This document shows, piece by piece, positions 272 to 62,501 of a stretch of 64,000 nt of DNA. The stretch spans positions 1-64,000 of the forward strand of contig JALDZX010000028.1 of assembly GCA_022813865.1 (NCBI GenBank), written 5' to 3'. This DNA comes from Xylographa opegraphella. Lineage: Eukaryota. Within the stretch, counting starts at the first letter, position 1. Every line of letters begins with the position of its first letter. A model generated the notes under the pieces. It saw nothing but the letters and a program-made list of their open reading frames with translations. It did no database searches and was not told the origin of the DNA. Position numbers and translations under genes: made by a program.

Positions 272-343
272 NNNNNNNNNNNNNNNNNNNNNNNNNNNNN
301 NNNNNNNNNNNNNNNNNNNNNNNNNNNNNNNNNNNNNNNNNNN
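272..343. other. Assembly gap (72 N)
   Basis: Run of N characters. Confidence 0.99.
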
Positions 344-1012
344 GAAATCGCTCACCTATAGCTGAGGTTCTAGGCCTGCTTTTCTGGTGAGATAGCGAGC
401 CGTAACATTATGTAGATCGTGAGGAAGGAAGCTCGAAATCAAAAAGCGCCCAAAAGACCCGCCCCGAATCCACCACAATATTATTATTGATTTAACCGTT
501 AAACTGATGCTATTTTTAATCTATAACATAAAATACCCCTTGCGTATGTAGGAGACTTTTGTGCGTACGTGCAGTACCGCGCGCTTTGACCCCTGGCCCT
601 ACCCCTGCAAAAGCCCCTGCATGCATTTGCGGCCACTAGCGGATTCTAAGGACTTTTGGTGTGTGGCTCCGTATGCTCAGCCTCGTGCAACGTAATTTGT
701 GACCGAGGACGCGCCTTGTGGATTCAGTGAGAGGCACACTCATCACAGTATCAGTTCATTAGCTTTGGTCTATCGTACGAGCGCAGCCTAGGGACCCAGA
801 GCCTACTACAATGTCGTTGTTAGCATTCTTCGTAGTCACAGTCGAGTACGCCGAGGCGAGCCAGCCATCAAGAGAGCAGCAAGAATGGGAACAGAGATTT
901 GAGGTGTCTGCCATACTGCGACCACGGAAAGAGTCGGAGCCGCAAAGATGGTGATTTGTACTTGACGCTCGACGTTGATATATAGACAATCCCGACAGCG
1001 CGTAAATACACC

Positions 1013-4089: not shown

Positions 4090-4680
4090 TCAATCCATCT
4101 CCCACCGCACCCATGCGCTCCCGTCTTCGAACCTTTGAATCGAGTGAAAATGAGAATTAGCGCCCGGTCGATTGATTACACGCAGCTGCTCAGCGGAGAG
4201 ACCTGATGGAGCGGAAAGGCCTGGTGGACGATAGTTTATGCTTCTGGGAGGATAGCCACCTCTAACATGAGAAGAATAGTGGTCTGCAGTATTGGTACGA
4301 TAACGAACCGGCATGTTGGCATGGTGGTTCTCCCTGGCGCGTAGAGGATAATACCCGACATCATACGGCGCTCGGTCTGCGTCGATGAAATCCCGAGCTT
4401 CGTCATCGCTCATGTCATGGTCCAGGTACAGCATGTCCACACGTTCCGGCGTACTATTTATCAGTATAGGGACCCGTAAATTCCTTCCGGCGAAGAGTTC
4501 GACATTGAACACGCATAGTTCGTTATTGTGGTCGGACCTACAATGCCGCCAGGGCCCTTGAATGAAATACAGGGTCGGGTTACCGCAAGGCAGATTCGAT
4601 CGGTGATTATATTCAGGGCATGGCACGATCACGGTGACGGATCCTCCACAGTCGAAGAGGAAAGAGTAGAAAGTACACAT
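4090..4680 (-). CDS. Hypothetical protein with N-terminal Cys-rich (possible Zn-binding) motif
   Basis: 196-aa ATG ORF beginning MCx8CG..PC..C..C..C; TATAAA on the minus strand about 140 nt upstream. Confidence 0.55.
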   Translation of the reverse strand: MCTFYSFLFDCGGSVTVIVPCPEYNHRSNLPCGNPTLYFIQGPWRHCRSDHNNELCVFNVELFAGRNLRVPILINSTPERVDMLYLDHDMSDDEARDFIDADRAPYDVGYYPLRARENHHANMPVRYRTNTADHYSSHVRGGYPPRSINYRPPGLSAPSGLSAEQLRVINRPGANSHFHSIQRFEDGSAWVRWEMD

Positions 4681-6465
4681 ACTCTACACTCAAGTAGGCA
4701 CGAAAAATTGGGAGCGACTCGAGTACAAATGGTAAACCGTAGTCCGGAGGAGAGTATTGGGATTTAGCTTGGTCGGAATAGGGATGATTAACGAGACTTG
4801 ATATTGTTGATAGACAAAAGCTTTATAGATTAATTGTGCGGGACAATCGAAATCGCGGAGTCCAACAACAATGCTCACTAACAGAGCGGTGACTCTGGAG
4901 CTGTATTGTTTGCCTTGGCATTCCCGCATGACGACTTCAACTAACGCTTTTGAGAATCGGAGACACATAAAGGATGACTTGCTGTATCGACAGCGAAGTG
5001 TTCCTCCAAAGCTGTCGTAGTACCGTGTCATAAACACTGTATCTGGCCGATAATTTTCTAGTTGCTCTGGAAACAATAATATCGAAAGGGAAGCTGACAC
5101 AGTGTTTATGTCACCATCACAAGCGCACACTGAGCTACTAGCATCAAAAGAAGATGGAGGGAATGCATAATAATGCATCGACACAGGATCTGTCGTAGTT
5201 GGTCCTGTTGGGTAGTTGGGAACTGCCGACTTCGACACCTGACGCTTTGATATTTCTGTAATTTATGGATGAACTTTCAGGCTAACATGCGAGCCAACGT
5301 ATTGAATAGACCTCTCTCATTGGCCAGAATCAACGTCAGGTCTTGGCGTTTCCATGCGTCTGAAAGTCTAAATCGATATTCTCAGCCCTACCGCCAGATG
5401 CAATAGGTAAGACCAGCGTGCAGTCTTTCTCCTATTTTTCAAACGACACTGCTTGCCATACGTACGAGTCAAAGAGATGGCTGTGGCGAACACAACGACA
5501 GCTTCCAGCTTGCTCATGCTGGACACACGGAAGCATGGCAAATAGAAATGTGCTCTCCCAGTTATCGCGGATCATGGTTTGTCATCGTGTGCTGTTAGAA
5601 GGACACAGTCTTTCGATATGAACAAGAAGCAATGTCCACAAAGACAGTGACTCACTCGCGTCTCATGCATCCATTCATTCGATCACATGCAACGCCCAGA
5701 TGTATTTAGCGATTCCTTCGTAAAGCACACATAGTCCGGGCCCGCCTCAACCTTCCACTCAACTCAAGTCTCATTCTTCGGATCAAGGTAGTGCTTTCAT
5801 ACGTATGACCTGGCTCTTCACTCGATAGCCAGTAAAGCTGTGCTCGGGTTCATATACTTGAACTCCAGATTCCATACCCAACTTGTGGTGGTTTAGCTGC
5901 CGTGGCAGCTGCGTGGCGTAAGCTTCATGTTGCCGCAAATCTCGTCCATGTTGGTGGAGGAGAGCGGAGAAGTCTAGTGACAAGTACCTGTTTTCCATGT
6001 CTTCGTTTGCAGTATGGCAGCAACGATGACTGAGGTTCGTCATAATTGTTTTCTTCGAATCTTAGCTGACTCAGTATCTCATGGTCACCTGCCGATTCGA
6101 GGTATTACAGAAGTTTTTATGGGTTCACTCGTTAGTCGTGCTTCAAAGGAAATCACTGGCGCGCAAAAGCATGAAAAGCGTAACCTCGGAATCGCATAGA
6201 TTGTGGTCGGATGTCGCAACCTGTCGCGTCAAGCAGCCCATCATGCGCTCTGGCCCCGTATATAGGTTATAGCAAGAGGCGTGCTGAAGGAATGAAACTA
6301 AACAGCCTTGATCAGTAAATCAAGTCAAGTAAAAACTCTTGTGAAATTGAGTACATGCTTATCGATGCTAACTCATGGCTTCTCCTAGGCCAAGTGAGGT
6401 ATATGGTAGATTCCGGCGGTATGTTTCCCGCGGTTCAATTGCCTCAGGTGTGCAGGTTTCACTGA

Positions 6466-8781
6466 TTGATCTTTCTAATGGAGTTTAGCCTTCCATGGAG
6501 GACGTTTGCGCTCGAGCGACCAGATCCGCTTCGGTCACGCCACATTTGTCCAGATATTGACATAAGAAGTTATTTCAACAGTTTTCAAGGCACTCAACAT
6601 GGACCTTTACTTAGCCTGGGTCATCTCTCCCAGATCCGTGAGCGTACGGATTGCGAATTATGCGTTCTGGTAGCAGCGTGTTTCCGACATGTTCCAGCAA
6701 ATGCAGATCTTGAATGTGTTCCTTTGCTTGAGCCTATGGCTCGGCGATTCAAGGAAGAAGGAAGTCTTAATTCCCTGAATCATAGGCCACAGATCAACAT
6801 TTTTCTTCGAATCGTTGATCGCAACATTATTGGCCAGCGCATGGTTGCTCTCAACCAAACATATTTGGATGATGTTTTCACTGGCCTACAGGTAGTAGTT
6901 CCAGATGGACCTGAAGGGTCTACCATATGCGGCCGCCACGTTAAACGTTTCGTTGATATGGCACTATGCCGCCAGTGGTTACACGCTTGCGAGAGTAATC
7001 ATGCGAGTCACTGCATTTCAGGACCGCGATCTGAAGGACTTGAAGAAGCTGTCGAGTATATGAACCTCATCGATGTCAGGCGTCGCCGTATCGTTAAAGC
7101 CATGCCCAATTCGAGATATGTTGCGCTGAGCTATGTATGGGGGCCGGCCTCGTTGCAAAAATTTCAAGCCACAAACGACAAATTCAGCACTTTTAGTGGT
7201 CAAATCGACGGAATACGACTCCCAAAGCGCTTGCCGAAGACGATCGAGGATGCCATGCATGTTGTCAGCCAAATGAAGGAGCACTTTCTTTGGGTTGATT
7301 CACTATGTATTATACAGGACGACCTTGAAGCCAGGAATCACCAAATATCGTACATGAATGTTATTTATGGTAATGCCGTTGTGACCATTGTTGCAGCATG
7401 TGGCTCGGATTCAAATGCCGGTCTTCCAGGAGTTGGAAGTACACCACGCCCCAGTCCGCTGGTTAAGAATGTGCAAGGTATACAGCTCATGACGGTCCTG
7501 CCATCAGCAGAAGAGTGCATCATGAAGTCCACCTGGAACAAGAGAGGGTGGACGCTACAAGAGAAGTTCTTCTCGCAACGATTCCTAATATTCACCCAAC
7601 ACCAGGTTCACTTCCGTTGTGGGACTGGATCTTGGCGGGAAGACATGCGTGGATTGCAGTGGCATCACGAATTTGCGAACTCCGAAAGGGAGGCTGATGT
7701 GTATGTTTCTCGATCGTCTTCATCGCCTCAGAGAACCAAGACACCGATGGAGATGCCATTAGGCCCATACCGATCGGAGGATATGCTCGAGCTGCACACA
7801 GGTTTCACTGCTCTGGTTGAAGACTATACATCGAGGGAGCTTACGAAGAGCTCCGATATTATTCATGCCGTTGTCGGAGTCGCTCGTGCTATGTTACCCG
7901 CATGGGGCACATTTGTGTGCGGGCTTCCGTTATCCGCATTTCCTTGGGTCTTGCTTTGGAGACATCAAGTTCCGCTCGTCAGGCGGCCATTGTTCTTTTC
8001 AAGCGGTAGCCGAAAAGACTATAGCTATCCCAGTTGGTCTTGGGCCGGTTGGCAGGGCCCCATTAAATATATTCACGATCGTGACATTTTAATAAACTCA
8101 AGATCAAGGGTGATATGGTATGAAAAGAACGAAATTGTAGGTACCAGAGCTTTGAGACCAAAAATCGACGAAACTCGCTTTTACAGTAAATCATTTCTTT
8201 CGTATGAAAACGGCAACCACGTACCTAATATTGTGATGGACAGCACGATACTGTCAGGTCACGAGAGCACGACATTATTGTTTTGGGCATCAAGCGCCAT
8301 CTTCCGTCTAGATGGTGGACTCATGAGTCGAGAACCTATGAGGATTGTTGGTACTAATGTACAGCTACCCACCTTGGCGATATATGACCGCAAAGGAAAT
8401 TGGGTCGGGCAAGCCATCCTAGACGAGGGACCATTTGGACAAGTTGGCACCAACGGATGCCATAATGGCACCTTTCACAAGCTCATTTGTCTATCGCAGA
8501 CAAGCTGTGACACATTTGGATTTTGGGTTAAGTTCGACCATGAATATCGCACATATTCCCGCAAAGGTGAACGAAATGATAATGCAAAGGGTCACAAAAA
8601 ATATGAGGATCAAGTTACTGAATACGACAACTGGGGATGGCTGAACGTCCTCGTTGTCAAGCCTTCGTCCAGAGTGCCACCCGATAACCCACCAGCATTT
8701 GTAAGAGCAGGAATAGGCATGATTCGGATGGAAGCATGGAAAGCCGCGGACCCGTACTGGCGTCTAATCAACCTCCAATAA
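6466..8781 (+). CDS. HET-domain (heterokaryon incompatibility, TOL-like) protein; true start probably in a short upstream exon
   Basis: Motifs LIDV, YVALSYVWG, LPKTIEDA, LWVDSLCIIQDD, MNVIYGNA, WNKRGWTLQE, LVEDYTSRELT, PSWSWAGW. Confidence 0.92.
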   Translation: MIFLMEFSLPWRTFALERPDPLRSRHICPDIDIRSYFNSFQGTQHGPLLSLGHLSQIRERTDCELCVLVAACFRHVPANADLECVPLLEPMARRFKEEGSLNSLNHRPQINIFLRIVDRNIIGQRMVALNQTYLDDVFTGLQVVVPDGPEGSTICGRHVKRFVDMALCRQWLHACESNHASHCISGPRSEGLEEAVEYMNLIDVRRRRIVKAMPNSRYVALSYVWGPASLQKFQATNDKFSTFSGQIDGIRLPKRLPKTIEDAMHVVSQMKEHFLWVDSLCIIQDDLEARNHQISYMNVIYGNAVVTIVAACGSDSNAGLPGVGSTPRPSPLVKNVQGIQLMTVLPSAEECIMKSTWNKRGWTLQEKFFSQRFLIFTQHQVHFRCGTGSWREDMRGLQWHHEFANSEREADVYVSRSSSSPQRTKTPMEMPLGPYRSEDMLELHTGFTALVEDYTSRELTKSSDIIHAVVGVARAMLPAWGTFVCGLPLSAFPWVLLWRHQVPLVRRPLFFSSGSRKDYSYPSWSWAGWQGPIKYIHDRDILINSRSRVIWYEKNEIVGTRALRPKIDETRFYSKSFLSYENGNHVPNIVMDSTILSGHESTTLLFWASSAIFRLDGGLMSREPMRIVGTNVQLPTLAIYDRKGNWVGQAILDEGPFGQVGTNGCHNGTFHKLICLSQTSCDTFGFWVKFDHEYRTYSRKGERNDNAKGHKKYEDQVTEYDNWGWLNVLVVKPSSRVPPDNPPAFVRAGIGMIRMEAWKAADPYWRLINLQ

Positions 8782-44777: not shown

Positions 44778-46416
44778 TTATATGCCCTCCTCCCCAGCTT
44801 TGCAAAGTTTGATTTCACGACCCCATTCGGATTTGAGGACTTGCGAAGCTGTTATACGACGGGTCGGATTAGGGTCGAGGATGGAGTAGATAACGTTACG
44901 GCAGCGTGCCTGTACGAGGATTAGCATTATAGAGATTATGTGGGGGAGGGTGTGAACATACTCTATGCAATGTTTCGATGGGCTGGTACCCATCTTCATC
45001 ACGCCTTCCTTCTAGATATCTATCAAAGAACTCGTCTTCTTCTCTTTTAGCAAGGCGCCACAAGTGGCGGCCCGTCCTCATAGCCATGTAGATAACCCCA
45101 GTGGCCCACACATCCACAGCTCTCGGATCGAACTCTTTATCAACATATTCCTCGGGTGCAATGTAAGGAGCAGAGCCACAGAGTCCCGCTGTCATGTGCG
45201 CTTCTTTCTCCCAAGCCATCCTGAAACATTCTCCATTGCCGAAGTCGGTAATCTTGAGGGATCCGTGTGTAGTGAGCAGCAGATTTTCTGGTTTGAGGTC
45301 TCTGTGTGCAACGCCCATCTCGTGCATGTACTCCACGCCTCGCATCAGTTGTTTGAAATAGCAGTCTGCTTCGGCCACTTCCAGCTTGCCGGCAGCAAGA
45401 ACTAAAGTATAGAGGTCTCCTCCGGGGCAGAACTCCATGACCTCGCAGTAGTCCCCCTTCGCATCTTGCAAGAGATCCAAGGTATGAATGACGTTCGGAT
45501 GGCGCAGGGATGATGAAATGCAGAACTCTGAAGTGAGACGCTTCTGATACTTTTTGGGTGACTCTTGCGGTCGTCTCCGAAATTCTTTGACAGCGTAGAG
45601 CTGCTCGAGTTTCGAATCCTTGGGGTCCGTTTTGTGCGATATCCTGACGATGCCGAAAGCACCGCGACCGACAATCTCCTGACATTTCCCGTACTTCTCC
45701 ACCAGTGTGTGTGTTGAACTGGGACCACCTTTCTTGTCTATGGCAAGTTTCTCCCGCTCGTTCTTTAGTTGGTCGACCCAGGTCGACATGAGTGAAAGCT
45801 GTTGATGTTCATCTCCGTGCTCTTCTTTCCGCTTTGCGCCAAGCATATCACGTAGCATATTGGAGAGCTTCTCTTGTCGCTTGGCGCTTTTGAGATGATG
45901 TTCGTGCGTGCCATCGGCGTTGACGATGAATCGCTGGAAAGGGGCATCCTGTTCCTTGGCTTCACTCTTGGTTCCAGCAACAGTAACCTTCCGCTCCATG
46001 CTCGTGCTCTCAGCACGCTTGTCTCCATTGTTGTGCGAGGGTGGCCTCGAAGGAGTCTTCGCTGCTGAAGGTTTATTCAACGTTTCAATCGATTCTGCAT
46101 CAGAGATAGCGCTTTCATTCTTGGATTCCTTGGGAACTTCTAATGGGGCAGCTTGTTTAGAGCCTTGTGAGAACATGCGAGTAAGACGATTTGTGATGGT
46201 AGGTTTTCTCGGCGCCGATTGGACAGGCAAATCTTTCGTCGGCATCTCTTTCTTGAGCGCATTGTCGACAATATCATTGGACTCCTCTTCCCGAATTGTA
46301 GGAGTTGGGTCGGTGTGTTTTGTACCTTGTGAGTGCACAGAGGAAACAGAACTGGTGGGTGACGGCCCTGCCGTCTGCGAGTGCGACCTCACCTGTAGAG
46401 TAGATCGAGTGGCCAT
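44778..46416 (-). CDS. Ser/Thr protein kinase of the HAL4/SAT4 (ion homeostasis) family, one 3' intron
   Basis: KYGKCQEIVGRGAFGIVR, KRLTSEFCISSSLRHPN, HRDLKPEN, DFGNGECF, CGSAPYIAPE. Confidence 0.9.
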
Positions 46417-48000
46417 TTTGTTGAGAAGCTCGTGAGTATATCTGGTCGAAGGGTATTCGGGAATCTTCGGCTGAGTCGCAAAGCTTGCTTCGTCCACGAG
46501 AAGATTAATCCTCGTAAGCGTCGTAAAGAGATGGTTTCGAGGACGTGCGAAGGGGCAAGCTGGCGAAAAGCAATATTTACAGGCTGCACTACACCGTAGT
46601 CGTCGAAAGAGTCGAGCAGGTTCTCAGCTGCTTACCAAACTGCCGGTGAAGGCGAAAGGGCAAGCAGGACCTCCAGCCGATCGCCGTATACTTCGACACG
46701 GCGCTAAATCGTCACTCACGTCCGACAGAGCGCCTTTACCAGCGTCCCAGGCCGATGGACTGAATGTTATAAGCTGCAAAGGAGAGGGACGAGCATGGTG
46801 GGCGAAAGTGGAGGAAGTGGGAGATTATTCCAAATCTAGATTCGGACCAGCGCTACTGTATAAAAATCATCTTCGAGAGATTCGGCGGACATGATGAAGG
46901 GTGGGGTTTCAAGGCTAGTAAGACCTTCAACAGATGGGTGTACGTGGTACTAATGTTGTGCTTGCGTCCAGCTGGATTTAATTGTGGCTGTGAGATGGTG
47001 GAAGAATTGCGTTTGCGAAGATCAGCTAACGGCAATGTGTGCATAAAGAATTTTCTCGAGAACAATGTGTCATTGGAGCTGTGCTACTAATCACGTGCCA
47101 TGAGGGGGCCTGGTCGTCTACGGAGTACGCCTGCGGTCTATGTACGTTTCGATGCGTGTCGTTCTCGAGCTGTGAGTTGGTCGTGGTCGTCAGCTCTGGG
47201 CAGACAGTGCTTGCGACCTTTGTCCGCGTGGGCGGTCGTAGCCGGCGTCACATGTCGGCGCAGTCTGTCGGTAAGAAGCGGTCTCAGGACGCGGTACGAG
47301 GACGGCCAACTCGACGATTGGGGTCACAACCCCACAAACTTGATATCAGAATCTCCATACCGGTTTGATGGACGCGTGCCGCGCCTCTGCTAAACTAGAG
47401 CACTGATCACGGGCGAATGCGATGGCTATCGACTACGCATGTCGTCGTACAAAAAGTGCATGAAGCTGCGCCAAGCAAGCTGGATAAGAGAAGGTTGCGG
47501 ACTGGGTGTCGTGCGATACGGTAAGAAGTGATAGCTCGATGACTTCGTTCAGCACACTCTATCGACCTCCATACATAGATCTGTGAGACCAGGCCACAAG
47601 TCCCGCCGTTCCAGGCCATTTGCTGAAAGTGCCCAAGCTGCATGTGGTGAAGGCGGGAGGGGCAGGTGTTGGCTCATAAATTAAATGCCTCATACAACGT
47701 CCAGCTCAACTGTTGCTCCACCACCTCGCAAGGAACCATGTCTGCGACTTCTTAGCAGAACAGAAAGATGCCAACGTGCTTCCTCCGGCACTATCGCTTG
47801 GTCATTTGCCTGTGGCACACCTCAGTACAACTCCGGAGCATGCACGACCAGTCTGCATTCCAGTGCATTAGGCCACATTTCAACTGCGACCACGGCGCTA
47901 CTACCTGCGGCCGTCGGAAGGTACACACAGCAGGCCGATGCAACTTGTCCTTCCTGGCGGTCGCCCTTGCAGGTAAGATATCGCCGTCGGGACTGCCTCA

Positions 48001-50364
48001 TTATTCATCGCCATGAGTGTTCTCGTTGGATAATTCTGGAGCGGCCACTTCGTTGGGCAAGCGCTTGTCGAATCCATTATCTTTATCGCGGACCTTCTCC
48101 AACAACTTGGCCAATCCACTCGCTGCTGATGAGTGACTTGTGTCGATCCCGATGAGGTTCGCATCTTTCTGATATTCCTTTTTGTTTTCCACTCGTCGCG
48201 TCAGGAAGAGAGCCGTGTCACTGCCTTTTCTGGCTCGTATACGTTCGATCTCATCATGGTAAGCGGTATCATATATGTTGATATCGGACGCTGGAGGGGA
48301 TTCACTGATTGCGGGAGGGTCAGGAGGATTGTCGCTTGCGAACGGTCCAATTTCGAGAATAATCAATTCTTCTAGAGGATCGTGTGCGTGACCCTTCCCA
48401 CTGTCCTTTCGATGCTCTATATCGCGTGGCGTAGGACCTCCGCCAGAGTGATGTTTTTCTGGATGTGCGTTGAGCTCTCGATGAGACACGGGTACTTTGC
48501 TGCCATCTTCTTTACCATGAGCGTCTATTGATGGTTGAGTGGGCGACTGAAGTACAACGCCGTCTCCTCTCTCCGGTGAAATTACATCCATCAAGTCTGG
48601 CTCGATGCTTCGATGTACACCTTCCTGCACAAGTGCCCTTTCGACTGGCCTACGGTCGTGGACATCCAGACTACGAGATTTCTGAGGCATGGCTCTCGAA
48701 GTCTCGCTGTTGATTGATAGAGGAGGTTGCACAATCCGGGCTCCTTGCCCTAGGATGCTGCTCATAAGATATGGTCGGCGCCTGTTAAGGAGACTCTTGA
48801 ATTTGTTAACTGCTTTCATCTGTCGGTAGAATTAGTAATCGGTCGCCTTTGTAGATTACATTAAGACGTACTACTAGAATGAGGTTGCTTAGATTGCCTG
48901 TGATGGCACGATTCATCTCTTCCTCCGACGGAGGCTCCACAAGATGTGCTGTGTTGTCCTCCGCCGATAACAGGGGATCTGTGCCCCGTCTAGTGACCCA
49001 CGGATGATTCTTCATAGCTGTTAGCATCGTGAGCACTAAGAGTCAAGACTTAGTCAAACTAACCCGCAGCTCGGGCATCTGAATGCGCTTTGAGGGGTCC
49101 TTCTCCAGAACCTTGTGAATAAGGTCCTTGAAGTCCTCGTCACAGTCACCCTCTACGCGTAACTCATCATTCTTGATGGACTCGTACAGGTCAAGAACTC
49201 CCATTCTCTCGAAAGGAATCCTTCCAAAATACAAGCAATAGAGGGTGACCCCCATTGACCATATATCGGCAGCTTTACCAGAAACGCCGCCATGTCTGCT
49301 AACACACAGCTCTGGGGGCAGGAAAGCTGGGGATCCTGCCGACTTGGCCGTCATCATGTCCGATTCCTTCTCAAACATTTCCGAAACTCCAAAGTCAACG
49401 ATTTTCAAAACGTCATCATCCGTCAAGAGTAAGTTGTCTGGCTTTATATCTCGATGGACAACTCCTTGAGCATGCAGGTACTCGATGCCGAGAATCAAAT
49501 CACGAAACCAGCATCTGCAACTGTCCGAGTCATACGGGTCTGCCTTTGTGTGGATGTCGACTTTCATCACTACCCCTTTCTTACACATTTCAAGGACCAT
49601 ATACAGCGAATCCTCTCGGGGATCGTCCAAGACTTCGATCAACGAAACAAGATTGGGATGGTTCAGCTTCTTCATTATAGCAATTTCTTCTCGAATTAAA
49701 TACAGCGGGTTCCCTTTCTCCTCCTCATCGTGTATGTCCGAGGCGGAATGTTGGTGGAGAGGATGATTGAAGCCTCCCGCGGCCAGATGACCAGGGCGTT
49801 TCGCGCCATGAGGACGACGAAGAATGTTGGATTGCGCTCGTTTACGCAATCGCGATTTGGAAAACTCTTTGACAGCCTTAACGTCTGTATCAGCACGTAA
49901 AAAAAAAGGCAGCGAGAGCAGAAAGCTGAACAGCATCAAATAAAACATTCGTGCTGAGCAAGTGGAGCTTGAGACCTCACATATTCGTTGCCATGTTGAT
50001 CAACCGCCAGATGGACAGCACCAAAAGAGCCGCGTCCAATCTCTTGCTTTATGATATATTGGTTAATTCTGTGGACTGCAGTACCATCGTCCTCACTATT
50101 CGTGTACTCGGAGCGAGCATTAATGGTTTCCTTGACCTGGCGAGGTGTAGACGGTTGGCGACGATGATGCCTCAAAGGGCTTTCGTATGCGGGTGATGAG
50201 CTGGTTGGGCATTTTCAGCACACTAATTAAGCATTGCTGTGAGCCTTGCAGACATACAGATGTGAGACAATTGCGGGTCGCATCGGAGTGCCATCGTTCG
50301 CTGGCAGATCTATAGAGATGCCGTGAGACGGCTTGATGTCGGTGGGTAGCTCGCCTTGTGACAT
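48001..50364 (-). CDS. Calcium/calmodulin-dependent protein kinase kinase (CaMKK, CmkC-like), multi-exon
   Basis: INQYIIKQEIGRGSFGAV, EEIAIMKKLNHPNL, HRDIKPDN, DFGVSEMF, AGSPAFLPPE; start inferred at MSQGELP. Confidence 0.9.
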
Positions 50365-52075: not shown

Positions 52076-55000
52076 ATGTCTACTTCCGTGTCTAGTCTTC
52101 TTCAGTGTCTTAAGTCCGTCCCTTCAGTGAAGTCTGGGGAATATGCAAGGAAGCTCAGACTTCGTTGCCGCAAAGAGCCAGCACTCGACCGTATTAAAAA
52201 CATCATGGGTTCATCGGATTTGCAATCTGCAGACAATGATTTCGTGAATTCCTTTCCAAAAACAGATGACGATGGATCAATGAATGAACTAGCTATATGT
52301 ACACTGGGTTGCGCTTTGCTACGAATTGAAAATGATTATGGCACGCATTACAATGATATGGCTAATGCGGTTTATAACATATCAACTCAAATGTAGGTAC
52401 TTCACTAACACTCATGTAGTCGAACGTTAAGTCTGGAGCATCCAAGGCACTTTGCTCACTGCTACCGCAAATATTCGAATGGAACATTAACGCGTTAGTA
52501 CCTATACCACTGTGCAAGGAATCGTTCCTTACAAATGTGTAGAAAGCTATCGAGCCAGCAGATTCCGCTGTTGAATGCCTTGTCCAAAGACAAGCAGCTT
52601 TTCGAGGCTTTCCGCAAACAAATCACAGATGGATGTGCGTACAGGATCAAAAGAACAATGACTTCATACTGACCCCCATAGCATTGTCTCAGAGTCTAGG
52701 AACCCAGGATGCATTAGGTGGAAGCGCAAACTACAAGGCTAATATCATTTTCGTCTATGAATATCTGCGGACGGGTCAATGCCCCAAAATCATACCCGAA
52801 CTCTCGCATGCCGGCAGCGAGAATTTCATGGCAATCCTGAAACATTGGCTGGAGCAGACGGATGCTCCGTCCGAAGGCAAGACATTCTCTACTTTGATCA
52901 CTGAGCTCAGTACGGTATCCAGCAATAATCAAGATCCGTTTTCGACGCTGAGCAATCGACAAAAGTTTGCTGAAGACTTGTTGGATCTAGTGCTCTCCGT
53001 GCAGGCAGTCTATGCTCCCAACGCCCGGTTGGACGTCCCAGCCTTGGACGTTGTAAAAAATGTTATCACAAATGCCCACCCTCAATTTTCAGATTTTGCT
53101 GCCACTCATTTTGGGTTCCTTAACTTTAATTTCGTGCCTGTCGCTCATGACCTCTGGCTTGATTGGGACACCCAAGTCTTGAACCTGCGCAATGATATAC
53201 AGAATTTGCTAAACAGCCCGGAAGTCCAGACTGGGTACTTGCACAAGATCAAGACCTATGCGAAACCTGTCTATGACTTGATCTGGTACGCAAAGCACGA
53301 CGATTTGTTCAATCTTGGAAGGTTGAGCAGTGTAAAGACGGAGGACCTGCCAACCATTTTCTCCTGCTTTAAGGCAGGAACTTTGGTTTGGACAGATGCT
53401 GGTCAGTTGCCGATTGAGATGCTTGGAGAGGGCGACTCCATCTTGACTCGGGCGGAGCCGAAGCAGTATGGGGTTCGATCTGATGAAAATGTTGCAACAC
53501 CGATCCCCGAGGAGAAAGCCATTCTTATTGGAATCAACGGAGAGTCGGCCTTTTTCACGCCTGGACATGTCTTCTACACAACCACCGGCCTTCGTGCGGT
53601 TGATCCAGAGGTGGCTCGACGTGAGAACCCCTGGCTCACTGTGGGAGAGCTCAAGTTGGGGCATGTCTTGCTAAGATCCACTGACGGCGTCAATTATACC
53701 CGAGTACCAATCGAGCGGATGACGCCTAGTTTGGTCGACTGTAAATGTGTGTATGGGGTGCACCTCCGCGAAGGGTTGTGCAGCTATCATGCTAATGGGT
53801 ATCTTGTCCATTTGAATTACCCTGAAATCACTATGCGAAGCATCGCAAGTGCGCTGAAGACCTTTTCAACGGAGCAGCCGATGAGGTTTTTGCAGCAATT
53901 TGCTGAACTCCAGCCAATATTTGCTAGATTTGGTGTGGGAACTGTTGCAGATGTGCTCTCTCGGGAGCTATACGATGACCAGCGGCTACGCTTGATGCGA
54001 CCAAGGATTAGCAATGAACAGCCTCCGATGCCTTTACGGTATCAAACACGAAGCTTTGAACTTTTTCAACTCGGCGATTCTACCACGAAGGATCCAGAAG
54101 TGTTCGACATCCGCCTGCCTACCGTGGACGCTTTTGATGGGGTACTCCTCATAGATGGCAACTACTGTGAACGTGCGCATTTCACAGATCGAGGTCTCAT
54201 TTGGTCTAGACCTATAGATGATCATATGTGGGAACATGCAATGTTTATGTTTCAAAACGACTTTCAATTGTTGTCAGGTAAGGGTGTAATATGGTACGGT
54301 GAAGGGCCGACATCAGCGGAACCATCAGTCAACCTTCGACAAGTTGAAATATCGTCTGTTGCTGTCAGGTCAGCTCATGCTGCAGCCTTTACCGGCATGG
54401 AAGATTTATCTGCTGCTGCAGATGCCACTGCTGCCGGAGCAGCGGCAGCTCCAGAAGAACCTGGCGATGCTATCGAATCAATGGAGGAGTCGAAGATAGA
54501 GCTGATAACATCACCACCTTTAGCACAGATGAGCACAGGAGCAATCACGAGTTCCACCGATAGCCAAATTCATGATAAGCCCATGCTTGCGAAAGTTCCC
54601 CAACCTCGCTCCGACCAAGACACTGCGACGACCTTTCAGAGGGTCTATGCGGCAACATATGATTCTGCAGAGTACAATCCGAAGTCACATGTATCTTTGG
54701 ATCCATCACCGTTCCTAGATTTAGCTTGCTACTCTGTGGGAGGCATCAATGACATCAAAATCATTACGTTTACAATGCCTGCCCTGGATGAACTTGCGTC
54801 GAAGCGACATGATCAAGTGACTAATGGTACTGGATCGGGATCTGACCTCAAACCCTTCACTTACTATGAGACCGAAGCTTTTCTTAACGAGAAGAACAAC
54901 TTGACTGTCAAGATGACCATCCAAAATCCTCAATTATTGGCAATGGCTGCAGACCAGTATTCCGAGACGGATCCAAAAAGGATATCGTACCAATCATTGA

Positions 55001-57912
55001 CCTTCAAGAACGCCGGATCCAACCTGGAGCTGCCTTTTGTCTTTTCCCAGGGATACTTTTCATTGGATGCAACAGAAAAACGTGCTTCTGGGATGCTGCG
55101 AGACTACGATCCTACAAAGCAAGGAACTCTTGGCAAGAGACACAATTTCGACTTACAGGCTTACGGTGATCTGCCTGAAAATGTTAGAAAAGTTATTGCC
55201 ATTGGTGTTCCTGGATACTTGAAGCCCGGAATAGCACACCAACAACCCATATCTTCTCCTTTTGAAGGTCAACAACGTCAGCCACTGTCATGTGCCGAAT
55301 TGATCAATCTGCCCATAGATAGTCAGAAGGTCAAGGGCGATGCGCAGAACATGCTCTACAGGACAATGGTCTATCACATGGACGATAATGATCGCAAAAA
55401 TTTTCTGGGTATTGATAAGGAGCATATACCAGCCGTAGGAGATGATCCAGATCAACCTCAGCAAGTCCCTACGGCGATGGCCGGAGCACTTGACCAAAAG
55501 CTGAAAACTTGGTTGAGGAAGACTTACGTCCCAGCCTATGTCGCTATCAACCTTGCTCGTTTGCCAAAAGATCATCAAGATAAATTCCACATCAATTACC
55601 ACAGCAAAGACCTAAAGAAATTAGAATACTTCTGGAAAGGTCGTGGGAAGAATGCAATGGCGCAGCAAGACGAGTACAACGATCTTAACCGTATGTCCAC
55701 AAGGCTTTCACTCATGAGAAGAGTGCCTCGCTTGCAGGATTACCTGGATGACACAACCACTTTAGCTTCTGACGACGCTGTGCTGAAGAAAAATTCTGAT
55801 TGGGCAAAGTACAAGGGTGGTGAGAAATGGGCACATTTGTTCTTCTACCAGCTATCTAGAAATAGATGTCGTTAACTCGACAGCTTCCGCGACAACCGTC
55901 GCGACTTATTCGGTATGCCCCAAAACTCAATGTCTTTGTATCACCTGACATTACATAGGGAAAAAACGCATTGGAACACCATACAAACAGTAAGTTTACA
56001 ATATTATGGCCTGATCCTGACCCTGACGAGCTTCAAAGTCCTTCATACCCTGTTCCCGCAACCCAAAATCGACCCAAATAAAGAACTCAGTCTCGATGCA
56101 CGTTACACAGCGATCGTTGAAGGCAAATTGGCAACAGATGCAACAACGAGCGCGGAATATGTCGGAGACCTGCGAGAGATTCGCTCTGCTGTAACGGATA
56201 ATCTCAGAACAATAATAGAGATGGTTCTCAAAGGACAAGATGAATTCGAACCAAAACTCAAGGCGCAAATTGAAAAAGATCTCAAAGCTATCGCTGCATA
56301 TGAGCTTGGTATCTCAGAAGGGCAGATCGCAAATAGTCATCAGATTTCCGACATCGTTCTGGCAAAGTGTGCTTCCTCCATTGCTGCAAGCGCAGATGCC
56401 ATGACCAGTAACTTTAGCATGAAGTTATTAGCAAAAGCTTTTAAGCCTGGGGTGGAGCCTACGAAACTTGGAGCCTGGGCTTCCTCGCTATGTGTATTGA
56501 TGACAGTGGTGTCAACGGTGACATACGCATTACAAGCTTGGCAAAGCTGGAAGCAAATAGCAGATTGGGTGGACGTCGTCCAACTGGTATTCAACAGTCT
56601 ACAAGCGGTTACGGGCTTAGTGTACGGTATCCTTGCAGCCAAGAATATATGGCAAGATAGCAAGTTGGCTTCTGAGTCACGTCGGCTAGGTACTGCTGAG
56701 ATCGAAATGACGTTACAGCACCAATTGAGACCGCAGGTAGCTCCACCAGGAGTCGAAGCAGAAAGCGTGGAAGCATTGAACGCGCGAAATCGTCAGAACG
56801 TGGAAGCAGTGGAAGCGCTTTCCGAAAGTTCAGTCAGCTCAAACTCTAGTATGAACGTTTCTGCTTCCTCGGGCAAGCAATCATCCCTGGAATCGCTACT
56901 TGTGCACGAAGAAGAAGAAGCCGATCTTCTAGGCTGGGAGGAGAAGAAAGCAGTATCCAAGTCAAAACCAAACAAAGCAGATGCGGCTCGCGAAGAGCTT
57001 GAAGCCAAATGGAACGTGACGCAAAAATGGATTCGAGGCGTCGCCGCCATATTCGGCGCTGTGTTGCTGGTGATGGCTTGTTTCGCACTTGCCCACAATT
57101 GGAAACATCTGGATGGATGGGAGCAGGCTTTCAACGTGGTGATTCTGGTGCACCAAGCTGTTGCACTTGTCATCGACGTTGTCTTGATATTTACCTCCGT
57201 GGCCATGTGGGTGACCGTCGTACTTGCTATTGTCGGCCTTATACTCATGATTGCGTACGCCCTTTATGAAGCTTTCAAAGAACGACCTAAGACCCCCATC
57301 CAGGAATGGTATGAATCGACAGGCCGAAAGTTTGTTGATGACTTACATGACCCTCCCGAACCTCAGTTCGACTGGAAAATCAGTCCCGAGTCCGGCAGTA
57401 TCGGCTCGGACATTACAATCGTACTTACTGGTACGGCTAAAGTGACGATCAGTAATGGCCTCAACAATCTTTCCAAAATTGCCGTCAGCTTTGCAGCTGC
57501 CAAAGACAGCGACAGCGGTCTTTCCAACACCGAAGATACATTTTCCGAAAAAGAGGCTTCTGCTGCTCAGCTGAACACGAATCAAGTCTCCATTTCGGTT
57601 CCTTCAGATTTGAACGACAAATGCTCTTGGCCTCTGCTTGCTCCTGACATATTTGGCGACGTTTTCACTTGGAGATGTGTCATTAATGCCAACAAGCCGA
57701 CAATCAAGTCCGATGGTACTAAGATGAAACAACAGCTTATCGAGCTTGATAAAAATAAGGAGGTCAAATTCGAGATGCGCGGAAAGATTGCTAGGAAAGG
57801 TAGTGGGACTGCAGGTGACATCTTCAAGATCTCTGTCGTTGAGACCTATTTGGATGCGATGATGGAGTTCCTCGAGGTCATTGAGCCAGAAATCTACTTC
57901 AAGAAGATATGA
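52076..57912 (+). CDS. Large (~1860 aa) Hint-domain protein with C-terminal hydrophobic hairpins; +1 frame break near 55858
   Basis: Exons joined by phase-consistent introns at 52370-52419 (weak donor), 52494-52542, 52635-52681, 55913-55958 and 55990-56038; Hint motifs CFKAGTLV, FTPGH, SYHANGYLVHLN. Confidence 0.8.
53365..53817 (+). other. Hint (intein/Hedgehog-like) autoprocessing domain, 151 aa, no homing endonuclease
   Basis: Block A CFKAGTLVWT...PIEML.EGD; block B TPGH; block F/G VYGVHL..SYHANGYLVHLN. Confidence 0.85.
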
Positions 57913-58988
57913 ATAGGAGGGACCAGCTTTCGGGGGCGATGCACACTCTCGATTTTGGTGACTGTATTCTAGGGAAATTAATTCACAAAGTACAGGGTAT
58001 CCAGAGATCGCACGGAAAGAGAAGGAGGCACAGCAACAATTCCGTGATAAGATTCAGTCTATCACTTGCTTTACGATTTTATCAACCAATTGAAAACTGT
58101 GATCGAATACAAATTTGATCGGATGAAAAGGTCAATCATGACTTCGTGAGTCGTTTGCCAATCCAGGCTTGAGCGCCTAGAACCAAGTCCCTTTCCCCTC
58201 ATGCCTGTTTTTCGCTGTAGCACTGTTTCTACCAACGACCCGTTTCGCGGAAGAAATTTGGTAATGAAAAAATGGTACGATAAATATAACAGCGTTTGTA
58301 ATATTGGTGCGTTAGTCTAAGTAAAGAAGCCATGAGCATAGTCCTCAGGAGGACATAGTACAACAGTAGTAACTGGTAACTTCTCAAGAATCGCAGCTTA
58401 AGAACTCAAAGCGAAATGTGCAAGTTTATTTCTCTCCCACTTTTGCACACGCGTACCCGAGCGGGCCACGAACCGAAGTCTGGTAGCGATCGGCAGCGCG
58501 GCAAGTCGGTAAGCTTAGCGGCAGCGATGATTGGGTGCTAGGGAGACTTGCCAGCAATTTCGTCATTGCTCCGGGGTCACAGAAAGATCTGCCCAACTCT
58601 AATGTCGTGCTGGTTCAGTGATTGACATGATACGCAACGCGCCATCCGGAGCAAGCTCCTTCCGCCCATACCGCAGACAACTCGCTTTCTCCCCACCTTA
58701 ATCTATCAACGCAAGATACGCATACCACTGACGGGAATCAGAAAGCCGACTCTTCGTCCTTGCTCAATTTTCAGCCATCGCTGCTCACCTAACTAGAGTC
58801 TGATCTCGGTCGGGCACCAGCAATCGGCAATGAGCGAGTAGACAGACCGCGAACCGACCACTTCTGCAGCGGGCATCTTCAAATCGGGTCTGGAATGTTC
58901 ACAGCTACGTTTCACAGGAGCAATTGTTGTGGCTTGTGGACGAGCTAAGAGTACGACTGAGTGAGAAATAGCCACTGTGGTCCTCAGA

Positions 58989-61900
58989 ATGTCGGATCGC
59001 CGTAGGAGAAAGAGCTTGAGCATCTTTCGACCCTCTGTCAACAGTCTTACTCCTATCTATGATGACTCTCCAAGTAGTGCACCGGCACTTTCTCTCAAGA
59101 AGAAACTCCGGCAAAGCACAACTTTCTCGATGCCTCCAACACCGACAAGCCCACTTTCAAGCCCAGCGCTCGAACGAACGGACTCTCAAAAAAGCTTCGG
59201 CAGGTCTTCGTCTACAATCACGTTGTCGCGCCCACGCACCCTTCATAAAGTGTCACGACCATCGAGCATATTCGGTTCTTTCCGCTCACTGCACTCTCTC
59301 CAAGATGAGGACGAAAATTTGGTCAGAACCCAGTCGACTACATCATCTGTCAATGAGGATATCGCTCCTTGCTTTGATGTCCTTAACATGATTGTGCTAC
59401 ATCATGGCGAAGTCCAGAATGGTGGTGGCATGTTTCGGAAAAAGAATACATACCTTGTGCTGACGAACTCACACCTGCTACGTTTCAAGAGCCAGGCTAA
59501 GGCGGCCGAAGCTTTTCCAAGCATACCGACTTCGTCAGGGAAAACTAGTACCACGCGCCACTCGAGATTGAGTTCTGCCGGGTCCATGCATGAGGCTCCA
59601 TATCCGAATGATGGGTGTATGAGTACCCCCCTCAGTCAGGTGGTGGCTGTATATAAGCTCGATGACGGGCGACCATACTTTACTATTGAGGTCGCTCATC
59701 TCGACGAGGAAACGAATCAAGCATCGACCATGTCACTCTTGTTGAATGATCCACGGGAGTCAGACCTGTGGCTTTCGTCCATTCGTGCAGCCATTACGAA
59801 ATCCCGTTTGACAGATCCAACCCCACCAATCCGGAGGACCATTGAACATCTTGTCAGAGCAGTGGAACATGATTGTGACTATGATCCACTTCATTTCCGC
59901 GTATTCAAAGTTGTCCAACGGGCCACCAAAACCGGTGCCAGATCCTCCTCGGATGATCTAGCGAAGCTGACTTCTAACATATATTATTTGGTGATTGGAT
60001 ATCAAAAAGTTCATCTGGTGCCTTTGCCACGGCTTGCCAAGTCTGGCTCCAGCACGTCTTTGGCAGAATCGAGCGGGTGCTCCCATGGCGTCGTCTCTCT
60101 CACATCAATATTCGTGCAAAGTTTCGACGATTCTTTCCAGCTTGCTTTTCGCATTCCGCTTCAGCCATCAACGACTTTGTTTCTCGCATCATCCAGTGTC
60201 ACCGATATTGCACTATGGATTCGGCATGCAGCAGATTTCTTACGACCGACATGGCTTGAACAACCTTTCTCATGGCATGTGCCACGAGCTCTGGATGACT
60301 CCATCCTACCAGTATCGGTGTCTGATGAGGAGGACCATTTTTGCTTTGACAGAACGCTCACGGCATACTGCTCGGCATACAATGTTGATCCGTCGAACAT
60401 TAGATATACTATCAACTACTCTTGCGAAGATGCGCCACAGTTTGAACTGTTGGAACCGAATCACTCGCGACGGTCCAGGTATACAGTTCTAGAGCTTCTT
60501 TCTATCATGCGTGCATTACGCTATAACGAGTCATTCCACTCAATTTCTTTTAGCAACATCGATCTGAGCGGCTTGCATGGACTATCCGACCACTTTGGGT
60601 CGGAGCATCTTCTATGGACTACGAGATCAGGCGTTCCGTTAACACTTCCGCTTAAAGATCAGAGCTGGCTTCTTGTGCAAGAAATCCAATCCCTCGCTCT
60701 CAAAAGTAAAAGACTACGTCGGTTGAACTTCTTCCATTGCATCAAGAGGAAGCCAAGGGATGAGGATGGATTTCGAGATCCAGGTTCCGGAATCTGCGAA
60801 GCTCTTTTCCCCTTGTGTGCGCAGCAGCTGACAAATGTTGATTGGATCATACTGAACGGCGTCACGCTGGCTGAGATCGATATTGACTACCTATATGCAG
60901 CTGCAGTCGAGAAGTCGTGTCACTTCCGTGCTGTTGACTTGGGACACTGCGGCCTCGGGGACGGAAGTCTGAAGACTGTCATGGAGGCTCTGCTACACCA
61001 GGAGGAGACACTTGAGTCCGTCGATTATTCTGGGAACCCTGTGAGGCTCAACCCGGAACTTCTTGCAAAACAGCTTTGTCGGCTTCAACGTGTACGGAAA
61101 CTTGACTTGTCGAATACGCAATGCTCTGCTGGTAAACGAGGTTTGTTAGAATCGGGAACGTTGCTCAGGTGGAGGTTAGAAGAGCTTTCGCTTTCCGGAA
61201 CTACCCTCAACGAAGAAAGCGTTGATGCGCTCGCATCCTACTTTGCGGATCCGAAATCAAACACTTTACGCCGGGTTCAACTCAACCAATGTCAGCTGAG
61301 TGGAAAGGACGTAGCAAAGTTGGCCAAGGCGATGTGCGCAGGTCGTTCACAACCCCGAGAAGTTGACTTTCAAGTCAGCGAGAACAAACTCGAACTGGGT
61401 CATGATCTCCTGGTCGAAGCCTTCGAAAGCTCGACCACGCCAAGCCAAATGACAATGCAAATGCTCGAGTACACCCGAGAACAGAACTTCAGAGATCTGA
61501 TAAAGGCTTTATCCACTAATAAGAGCCTGTTATACCTTGACATATCGCGCACGTCTCTGCCTTTTGACGCGAATGAACAGACCTGCAAGGTATTACGCCA
61601 TATGCTAGAAACAAACGATACGCTGCAAGAACTCAATTTGTCGGGTGAAGAGACTCATCTGGAGGCTGTGACGCTCGGACCGGGACTCCGGCATGCTTTG
61701 AAAGGATTGGAGGAGAACAGGGCGCTCAAAATCCTGCGCATAGAGCATCAGGCCCTAGGGTTACCGGGTGCCAACGCTTTGGCATCTGTCCTCGAAAAGA
61801 ACGATACTCTGTCGGAACTCTATTGTGAGGACAATGGGATCAGTCTACAGTCCTTTACCTTACTCGTCAATGCACTGAAGAACAACAGCTCCGTGGTTCA

Positions 61901-62501
61901 TCTTCCCAACATGGACAAAGATCGTGCCTGGTCCCGCCAAAGAGTAGACCGAGAGATCGATGGCATGCGAGACAACAGCGCTTCGACGCCTGGACCGTCG
62001 ACAAAGTCCACAGTCCGAAAAGCATTCAGCGGCGCCATCCACGGCGGCCGCTCGTTCTCCGGCCGCAGCACGGAAAAGCCCGCGCCCATGCCCGGGTATA
62101 CGGAGCAAGACGTCCAGGCTGCCGTCGCCAGCCTCGATCAACGGTGGGACGCGCAGGTGCAACGGTTGCACGGCTACCTGCGGCGGAACTACTGCACCAC
62201 CCACGGCCTACCTTTGCCGGAGGAGGACGCGACCAGTCCCGCGGGCGAGAGCCGGAAAGGGTCAGCGGGTGATGGTCTGGTCGGCGCGTTGATGGCCGCG
62301 AGCTTGGACCGGACGCCGAAGATGGAGTTTGACCTGCAGCTGGGAGACGAGTATCGGGTCGGTGGCGACGTCGAAAAGGGGGGCGTTCTCAGCCGGGCCC
62401 GTGAGGTGCCGGGCGAGTACAGCGAGAAGTTGATCGACATCGGGGACGACGAGAGCGACTCGGACGGGGAGCTGATCATGGCTCGAGCCCGACCATTCTG
62501 A
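58989..62501 (+). CDS. PH-like domain plus RNI-like leucine-rich-repeat protein (CARMIL/LRRC16-like architecture)
   Basis: Single long ORF; PH-like HHGEVQ..FRKKNTYLVLT..LLRFK; LRRs such as VDLGHCGL, LDLSNT, LSLSGT, LQELNLSG, LKILRIE. Confidence 0.8.
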   Translation: MSDRRRRKSLSIFRPSVNSLTPIYDDSPSSAPALSLKKKLRQSTTFSMPPTPTSPLSSPALERTDSQKSFGRSSSTITLSRPRTLHKVSRPSSIFGSFRSLHSLQDEDENLVRTQSTTSSVNEDIAPCFDVLNMIVLHHGEVQNGGGMFRKKNTYLVLTNSHLLRFKSQAKAAEAFPSIPTSSGKTSTTRHSRLSSAGSMHEAPYPNDGCMSTPLSQVVAVYKLDDGRPYFTIEVAHLDEETNQASTMSLLLNDPRESDLWLSSIRAAITKSRLTDPTPPIRRTIEHLVRAVEHDCDYDPLHFRVFKVVQRATKTGARSSSDDLAKLTSNIYYLVIGYQKVHLVPLPRLAKSGSSTSLAESSGCSHGVVSLTSIFVQSFDDSFQLAFRIPLQPSTTLFLASSSVTDIALWIRHAADFLRPTWLEQPFSWHVPRALDDSILPVSVSDEEDHFCFDRTLTAYCSAYNVDPSNIRYTINYSCEDAPQFELLEPNHSRRSRYTVLELLSIMRALRYNESFHSISFSNIDLSGLHGLSDHFGSEHLLWTTRSGVPLTLPLKDQSWLLVQEIQSLALKSKRLRRLNFFHCIKRKPRDEDGFRDPGSGICEALFPLCAQQLTNVDWIILNGVTLAEIDIDYLYAAAVEKSCHFRAVDLGHCGLGDGSLKTVMEALLHQEETLESVDYSGNPVRLNPELLAKQLCRLQRVRKLDLSNTQCSAGKRGLLESGTLLRWRLEELSLSGTTLNEESVDALASYFADPKSNTLRRVQLNQCQLSGKDVAKLAKAMCAGRSQPREVDFQVSENKLELGHDLLVEAFESSTTPSQMTMQMLEYTREQNFRDLIKALSTNKSLLYLDISRTSLPFDANEQTCKVLRHMLETNDTLQELNLSGEETHLEAVTLGPGLRHALKGLEENRALKILRIEHQALGLPGANALASVLEKNDTLSELYCEDNGISLQSFTLLVNALKNNSSVVHLPNMDKDRAWSRQRVDREIDGMRDNSASTPGPSTKSTVRKAFSGAIHGGRSFSGRSTEKPAPMPGYTEQDVQAAVASLDQRWDAQVQRLHGYLRRNYCTTHGLPLPEEDATSPAGESRKGSAGDGLVGALMAASLDRTPKMEFDLQLGDEYRVGGDVEKGGVLSRAREVPGEYSEKLIDIGDDESDSDGELIMARARPF

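Follow-up and report, generated by a model that had tools for sequence, protein, structure and literature searches.

The question raised by this locus is what a giant protein with an intein-like Hint domain could be doing in the lichen fungus Xylographa opegraphella. The window analysed, 64,000 nucleotides of contig JALDZX010000028.1 (positions 1–64,000 of the forward strand, assembly GCA_022813865.1), carries a coding gene with 6 exons and 5 introns at 52076–57912 on the + strand. Its product has 1,864 amino acids, with an X at a break in the frame. A sequence-only reading of the window had proposed a spliced gene of about 1860 codons here, which the six-exon model bears out, and had suggested that it encodes a self-cleaving, membrane-inserting, toxin-like effector. 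The gene is a member of a large undescribed family, mainly fungal, of multi-pass membrane proteins of about 1,700–1,900 amino acids, and is not an orphan. It is reasonably probable that the protein functions through Hint-mediated detachment or transfer of a cytosolic N-terminal domain (the N domain) from the membrane-bound remainder.

The Hint domain lies exactly where it had been placed:

53365–53817, + strand, Hint domain (residues 382–532), with Cys1 at 53365–53367 and the terminal Asn at 53815–53817

It starts at a Ser|Cys-Phe junction, its block B reads Thr-Pro-Gly-His, and it ends with His-Ala-Asn-Gly-Tyr-Leu-Val-His-Leu-Asn, followed by Tyr-Pro-Glu. The fold was assessed in an AlphaFold2 model of 52684–55860, built from a 71-row alignment (predicted local distance difference test, pLDDT, 81.8; predicted TM-score, pTM, 0.71). 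The best VIA-align match of the Hint segment was the bacterial intein-like (BIL) domain BIL2 of Tetrahymena BUBL1 (6tmm; Z 15.9, root-mean-square deviation (rmsd) 2.3 Å over 138 residues), followed by the gp41-1 intein (Z 14.4), the C. thermocellum BIL domain 2lwy (14.3), Hedgehog 1at0 (12.9) and Vint 8r2c (9.8). All 28 chains that matched at Z ≥ 8 were Hint or intein structures. Foldseek gave the same picture – its top match was BIL2 again (6y75; E 3.3e-7, target-normalised TM-score (TMt) 0.77), with the BIL domain 2lwy, inteins, Hedgehog 1at0/6tyy and Vint 8r2c among the other top matches.

Sequence profiles led to the same domain type. A four-sequence family profile searched against 1.84 billion representatives matched multi-Hint proteins (P0082, E 1.6e-57; P0085, 1.1e-54) via profile positions ~245–412; to those proteins Pfam assigns Hom_end_hint, Hint, Vint, Hint_2 and PT-HINT. 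A 26-member profile searched against PDB sequences had the BIL domain 2lwy as its best match (E 6.8e-4). Matches of the four-sequence profile to gp41 in the PDB were set aside as chance, resting on a W-x-x-W-D motif. The Hedgehog Hint module (PF01079) had no match in the window protein or its close relatives (E ≤ 0.1–1), PT-HINT (PF07591) had none in the family proper, and the Vint Pfam model had none in the window protein. Judged from the modelled fold and the sequence, the segment is a true Hint domain with its catalytic residues intact. It is also the best-conserved domain of the protein, with 54–66% identity to distant members, compared with 12–47% for the other domains.

The catalytic residues were counted over the full-length Hint domains of the family (134, in 133 proteins). 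The window domain has Cys1, Thr-x-x-His in block B and a terminal Asn, and 101 of the 134 likewise combine Cys1 with the block-B His and the final Asn. Taken singly, position 1 is Cys in 113, block B has His in 114 (and Gln in 15), and the terminal residue is Asn in 124. The residue before the domain is Gly (62) or Ser (44, as in the window), the residue after it is Tyr in 116, the window included, and the next is Pro in 129. Because the +1 residue is Tyr, protein splicing is excluded on sequence grounds, and N-terminal cleavage, or transfer of the N domain, is the likely chemistry. The window domain departs from the intein His-Asn dipeptide, having His-Leu-Asn, with a Leu between the His and the terminal Asn.

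BIL domains are the closest known relatives in both fold and PDB sequence. They share with the window domain Cys1, the block-B His, the terminal Asn and the lack of a Cys, Ser or Thr after the domain, a pattern that goes with cleavage or transfer and not with splicing. Passages in PMC8616854 describe BIL2 as joining its N-extein to lysines without ATP and without a +1 nucleophile. The setting is different, however. BIL2 is flanked by ubiquitin-like domains and the bacterial BIL domain belongs to a secreted protein, whereas the Hint domain of the window lies within a ~1,860-residue eukaryotic membrane protein, between a 380-residue helical domain and beta-barrels. The His before the Leu that separates it from the terminal Asn is also not conserved in the family.

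The sequence-only reading had outlined an N-terminal domain, a beta-rich region, an Ala-rich linker, a long middle region and a C-terminal beta-rich domain around the Hint domain, and all of these have counterparts in the models. In a second model, of 56041–57909 (623 amino acids, pLDDT 72.8), long helices and a disordered loop come before three tightly packed hydrophobic helices, and a beta-sandwich forms the C-terminal end. Apart from the Hint domain, the protein has the following parts (ORF, open reading frame):

52076–53364, + strand, N-terminal, mostly helical domain (residues 1–381)
53833–53997, + strand, short helical segment after the Hint domain, modelled partly at low confidence
54028–54360, + strand, modelled beta-barrel 1, eight-stranded, up-and-down (ORF residues 449–559)
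54403–54612, + strand, Ala-rich linker, modelled as disordered, pLDDT < 50 (ORF residues 574–643)
54628–55170, + strand, modelled beta-barrel 2, eight-stranded (ORF residues 649–829)
55177–55860, + strand, modelled helical domain (ORF residues 832–1059)
56458–56655, + strand, hydrophobic helices 1 and 2, a moderately hydrophobic hairpin
56731–56910, + strand, charged, Ser-rich disordered loop between the two sets of helices
56974–57276, + strand, hydrophobic helices 3–5
57367–57906, + strand, modelled C-terminal Ig-like/cohesin-like beta-sandwich

Outside the Hint domain, the most conserved motifs of the family are in the helical domain (M-x-Y-H-M, Y-F-W-x-G-x-G-x-x-C-L and G-G-x-x-W-A). For the N domain no known fold or family was found, and the ESM Atlas gave no usable match; a match of relative P0004 to a viral cluster there (0.78) was below the tool's lead level and was set aside. 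A search of shorter lengths for the N domain as a stand-alone protein returned only a 110-residue fragment from a relative's contig.

Five hydrophobic helices were found where four or five had been predicted. Kyte-Doolittle peaks are present only at residues 1383–1408, 1420–1441, 1567–1596 and 1601–1655, the last of which holds two helices. Helix 4 has a conserved Gln (30 of 47) and a conserved Asp/Glu (34 of 47), spaced seven residues apart, and a conserved Pro-rich motif follows helix 5. The predicted lack of a signal peptide was also confirmed, in that no N-terminal hydrophobic segment is present by a hydropathy measure, without a dedicated signal-peptide predictor (the highest 19-residue Kyte-Doolittle mean is 0.53 for windows starting at residues 1–60). 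Lys and Arg counts of the loops weakly favor an N-in/C-out orientation, and weakly suggest that the C-terminal sandwich faces outside the cytosol. The helical part of the second model gave generic helical-bundle matches only (Z ≤ 10.8, in a list shared by two regions). In the C-terminal half, searched as the whole 623-residue model and not as a domain folded alone, nothing was recognised that has the fold of a toxin, a pore-former or a translocation domain. The hydrophobic helices, which the sequence-only reading took for a membrane-inserting device, are accounted for just as well by ordinary membrane spans in a multi-pass protein whose large N-terminal part is cytosolic.

The mechanism that we favor is as follows. 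The N-terminal part of ~1,380 residues, having no signal peptide, should be cytosolic, the five hydrophobic helices would anchor the protein, and the Ig-like sandwich would lie outside. The Hint domain would carry out an N-to-S acyl shift at Ser381|Cys382, giving a thioester, which would then be hydrolysed (plain cleavage) or attacked by some other nucleophile (transfer). By either route the N domain of ~380 residues would be separated from the membrane-bound remainder. Release of this N module is the most economical mechanism. Gene structure, Hint fold, catalytic residues, family architecture and frameshift are observations here; cleavage itself, the topology and the role of the N domain are inferred. 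In function the process would be like that of Hedgehog or of BIL2. There is also a functional analogy in MYRF, in which a cytosolic N-terminal domain is linked through a self-cleaving domain to a membrane anchor, with the C-terminal domain outside the cytosol. The autoprocessing domain of MYRF is of the intramolecular-chaperone type, not Hint, and no DNA-binding domain was recognised in the window protein.

Several observations weigh against this mechanism. Pfam, which like the sequence-only reading names no family for the protein, gives only a Hint_2 match (PF13403) of 23.7 bits, under the gathering cut-off of 28.4, and it covers positions 2–34 of 147 only; the scores of the relatives (20.7–32.8 bits) are likewise confined to this first block. 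As many as 18 of the 134 Hint domains have no Cys, Ser or Thr at position 1, an upper bound as several of the records begin inside the domain, and in 15 the block-B His is replaced by Gln. Because of these substitutions, some members seem to function uncleaved. The His that is penultimate in classical inteins varies here (His in 38 and Ala in 38 of the 134). No significant structural match came up for the N domain, either barrel or the helical domain in the searches made, and the proposed topology is drawn from hydrophobicity and a weak charge bias. The X. opegraphella copy itself is frameshifted, so the protein may not be made at this locus.

A coherent subgroup with degenerate sites (for example P0040, P0043 of Aspergillus melleus, P0046, P0055, P0077, P0156 and P0164) has lost Cys1 and the block-B His and kept the full architecture. 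It favors a reading in which the Hint domain is a structural relic that is not cleaved, in a multi-pass protein that acts as a receptor or adhesin or is transporter-like. The C-terminal sandwich would suit such a protein, as it resembles adhesin, pilin, YcnI and cohesin modules (Foldseek E ~1e-4; Z 8–10, in the tool's noise range). The subgroup to which the window belongs retains Cys1, Thr-x-x-His and the terminal Asn, however, and it is hard to square a relic with the most conserved part of the protein. This explanation is regarded as very unlikely.

If cleavage occurs, what resolves the thioester could depend on the region behind the Hint domain. It is followed directly by a helical segment, which is conserved, and by the eight-stranded barrel 1; both co-occur with it in most members, and eight-stranded barrels are a type of fold that often holds small ligands. 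Barrel 1 might present a nucleophile, such as a sterol or other lipid or the lysine of a target protein, that attacks the thioester, so that the N domain becomes covalently attached to lipid or protein at the membrane. Gly-Cys-Phe is the cleavage junction motif of Hedgehog, and the Gly or Ser at –1 and the Phe that follows Cys1 give the family a similar junction. The strong conservation of the Hint domain also suits this idea, as does the nearest structure, BIL2, which makes isopeptide bonds according to the same passages in PMC8616854. On the other side, the matches of barrel 1 are all in the noise range of the tool (giant-haemoglobin linker chain, Z 7.6; avidins, 6–6.7; hemophilin and an LbpB lobe), and no sterol-recognition-like sequence was identified in the protein. 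Transfer to such an adduct is therefore judged unlikely, at least in this specific form. The VIA-align matches of barrel 2 (cathepsin C exclusion domain, Z 6.4; fHbp, 6.3; NHBA, 5.9; down to 5.5) are in that range too. Foldseek matches to TbpB/LbpB were rejected as a shared small-barrel topology only (E ~1e-3, rmsd ~20 Å, TM ≤ 0.15, or 0.27 for one lobe-only chain). As the Z values are within the stated noise range, only the topology of the two modelled barrels is claimed.

The comparison with Hedgehog has the same two sides. Both proteins have a Hint fold, a junction of a small residue with Cys-Phe and an N-terminal domain that is released (a prediction for the window protein), and the conserved module right after the Hint domain of the window could act as an adduct-recognition region. 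In contrast to Hedgehog, the window protein has no N-terminal hydrophobic segment, its Hint domain is predicted to be cytosolic rather than secretory, and the module after it is a beta-barrel instead of a short sterol-recognition region. About 1,300 more residues, with five membrane helices, follow the processing part. Vint (VWA-Hint) proteins resemble the window protein in having a eukaryotic Hint domain that is neither intein nor Hedgehog, but the window protein has no VWA domain and its architecture is wholly different.

The extent of the family depends on the search. A word-indexed search found only 5 relatives; when the profile was searched exhaustively, there were 1,234 at E ≤ 1e-3, of which 504 reach ≤ 1e-10 and 174 reach ≤ 1e-30. 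With the 26-member full-length profile, 54 proteins among 7,999 scored candidates had E ≤ 1e-5. Segment mapping gave the same domain order in ~25 proteins of about 1,500–2,080 amino acids, and a profile of the C-terminal part recovers most of the long members, including those of Volvox and a clam. Proteins of 370–560 amino acids that might pass for stand-alone "middle domains" seem to be gene models cut short on small contigs, and are not counted as a separate architecture. No description of the family was found in the literature (supplements not searched), and all named members are "hypothetical" or automatically named.

Named members among the ascomycetes are from Aspergillus, Fusarium, Trichoderma, Monilinia, Colletotrichum, Podospora, Neonectria and several Dothideomycetes; those among the Agaricomycetes are from Galerina and Pluteus. 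Three Xylographa species have members, and X. opegraphella has at least two paralogues (P0001, the window gene, and P0166). Outside the fungi, two neighbouring genes each were found in Volvox africanus (P0183/P0184, tags 015504/015508) and in the clam Tegillarca granosa (P0189/P0091, 009143/009144). Across 53 members, Pfam found only the first Hint block, apart from an fn3 domain that ends P0064 and a tetraspanin-like region at the start of P0091. P0064 shares the N-terminal type of the Volvox copies, which are labelled fn3-containing by their source.

A bacterial relative was also found, as the sequence-only reading had thought possible, though it shares the Hint domain alone. It was one of 26 matches to two peptide patterns in bacterial and archaeal genomes, a scan that does not measure how common bacterial relatives are. 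The relative is a giant ORF of Olivibacter oleidegradans, with two tandem Hint domains that are 33% identical to that of the window; homology ends there. The D-P...E-N-P and S-Y-H-A-N-G-Y-L-V motifs are common to these domains and the fungal family. The ORF lies at:

2065546–2072409 of contig NZ_JBHLWO010000002.1 (positions 1–6864 of locus L001), giant ORF of >2,288 amino acids, running off both ends of the locus

It also encodes an Ala/Gly-rich hydrophobic stretch, many fn3-like repeats and a C-terminal F-box-associated (FBA, PF04300) domain, an odd combination for a bacterium.

The gene tree strongly conflicts with the species tree. In a quick-search maximum-likelihood tree, made under LG+G4 from 34 named members and 1,667 columns, Galerina falls beside Xylographa parallela and X. 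bjoerkii, Pluteus beside Neonectria and Coniothyrium, Monilinia beside Aspergillus nomiae, A. flavus beside A. lentulus, and the window copy beside Trichoderma. Forcing the two basidiomycetes together, a group chosen after the tree was seen, costs 241 log-likelihood units (approximately unbiased (AU) test, p 3.5e-68). Identities range widely – 89.8% over 1,696 amino acids between A. flavus and A. lentulus (P0159/P0164), 86.6% between Trichoderma citrinoviride and T. viride, 84% between X. parallela and X. bjoerkii, 54% between Pluteus and Neonectria, and 31% between the window and its nearest named relative – while the similarity of paralogues inside one genome is confined to the surroundings of the Hint domain. 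An identity of 94.8% was found between P0175 and P0178, whose labels read Neurospora sp. IMI 360204 and Trichoderma evansii. Near-identical pairs across species could reflect recent transfer or mislabelled or contaminated assemblies. The discordance as a whole could come from ancient paralogy with heavy loss, from horizontal transfer, or from both. Because the gene tree clashes with the species tree, the sequences suggest an accessory, possibly horizontally moving family.

The exon model of the window copy was made by mapping the NCBI protein on the DNA, reading the splice sites and comparing relatives, and all five introns have GT..AG borders:

52076–52369, + strand, exon 1
52420–52493, + strand, exon 2
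52543–52634, + strand, exon 3
52682–55912, + strand, exon 4, with a one-base frameshift within 55858–55864
55959–55989, + strand, exon 5
56039–57912, + strand, exon 6
52370–52419, 52494–52542 and 52635–52681, introns inside the part that encodes the N domain
55858–55864 (about 55862), + strand, one-base insertion relative to three related genomes

The frame of exon 4 is restored only if one base is skipped within 55858–55864. The insertion leads to an in-frame TAA at 55873–55875, which separates two long + strand frames of the same phase (52543–55875 and 55876–57912), and it is the sole lesion found; the remaining exons are all open. Relatives P0002, P0004 and P0005 read unbroken through the conserved G-G-E-K-W-A motif. 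The sequence-only reading had assumed a repaired frame, and Logan contigs of three related organisms (X2, X3 and X5), which differ from the window by 41–53 per 1,001 bases, agree with it, each being one base shorter at 55862/55863. Contig X1, probably from the source run, is identical to the window at a word depth of 163, which is not independent evidence. Because the reads behind X1 carry the insertion and the three related genomes do not, it is a genuine feature of the reads of this genome, and derived. All three related genomes also have an extra C behind 56036, which is inside intron 5 and has no coding effect. Since the insertion cuts the frame ahead of the membrane part, the X. opegraphella copy has probably been inactivated recently.

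The public annotation differs from this model. The NCBI entry "hypothetical protein MMC26_004470 [Xylographa opegraphella]" (P0001, 1,800 amino acids) matches the window at 100%, and it begins at 52205. The earlier ATG at 52076 was chosen because the extra 43 residues resemble the N-terminus of a Trichoderma homologue. The entry also places a 64-base intron at 55819–55882, removing the conserved G-G-E-K-W-A motif. This "intron" is probably an annotation artefact that hides the frameshift.

The evolutionary observations and the frameshift could favor a conflict system, the original suggestion for this locus. On that reading the protein is an effector of cell death, allorecognition or antagonism, Hint cleavage arms or releases a part of it, and the late helices insert as a pore or translocation device. 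PT-HINT toxins are a precedent for Hint-bearing conflict proteins, and like them the window protein has its Hint domain within a very large multidomain protein of patchy, discordant distribution. The distribution had been expected to be patchy and looks so; together with the discordant tree it fits an accessory or conflict-type gene, going by the sequences compared. The gross discordance of the tree, the post hoc rejection of basidiomycete monophyly, the high identity of copies across species where paralogues within a genome are alike only around the Hint domain, the paralogues and tandem pairs, and a fresh frameshift of the kind that fits a dispensable gene all point the same way, and the conserved Gln and Asp of helix 4 suggest more than a passive anchor. 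The domain content does not. Swappable N-terminal domains had been anticipated, but the pre-Hint regions of 85 proteins fall into clusters of 63, 16, 4, 1 and 1 (BLAST single linkage). Because 63 are in one cluster, the N domain appears by sequence to be homologous across most fungal members, not swapped or hypervariable. Beyond the Hint domain, the remaining parts are conserved throughout the family instead of being polymorphic, leaving no variable toxin tip, and no secretion-associated N-terminal domain is present. Pfam found no toxin domain in the family proper. No partner or immunity gene is evident among the flanking core genes (small unannotated ORFs left out), and a lineage-specific weapon would not usually share one architecture between fungi, a green alga and a mollusc. 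A toxin or allorecognition role is thus speculative, with some indirect support from the distribution and none directly from the domains, and it is considered improbable.

Of the two neighbours that had been named, the PH-LRR gene was confirmed, while the upstream gene could be confirmed as a kinase but not as CaMKK:

48004–49999 and 44899–46623, – strand, protein-kinase ORFs of the upstream flank
58965–62498, PH_2nd_LRR protein of the downstream flank

The ORF at 48004–48831 (– strand) has no Pfam match; it may be one more exon of the kinase gene at 48004–49999. The wider surroundings are core genes (kinases, PH-LRR, ORC2, SecY/Sec61, ArgJ, importin-13, an M24 peptidase and a BAR protein), with no transposase-like match among them. 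Elsewhere in the window, an ORF of 771 amino acids at 6466–8778 (+ strand) has a HET (heterokaryon incompatibility) domain (PF06985, E 1.9e-33).

To our knowledge, eukaryotic Hint domains beyond inteins, Hedgehog-related proteins, Vint and the ciliate BUBL loci are scarcely understood. The release or transfer of the N domain by the Hint domain is the reading carried forward here. It concerns a family with hundreds of members, in which the Hint domain is the most conserved part and is predicted to act in the cytosol, as part of a multi-pass membrane protein. For genome annotation, the locus is a case in which a public model masks a frameshift with a 64-base "intron" through a conserved motif. 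At the far end of what might be imagined, and a long shot, a horizontally spreading accessory family of fungi, a green alga and a mollusc would use a cytosolic Hint domain and a ligand-type barrel to transfer a 380-residue N domain covalently to a membrane lipid or target protein, an ATP-independent conjugation or lipidation of a new kind, comparable to Hedgehog or BUBL but intracellular, that may serve self/non-self conflict. If the discordance reflects transfer between Ascomycota and Basidiomycota, the family would be a useful marker of horizontal gene flow among fungi. Should cleavage or transfer be confirmed, it would be a new cell-biological use of Hint chemistry, and would provide a natural, probably Cys-dependent, self-cleaving module from fungi.

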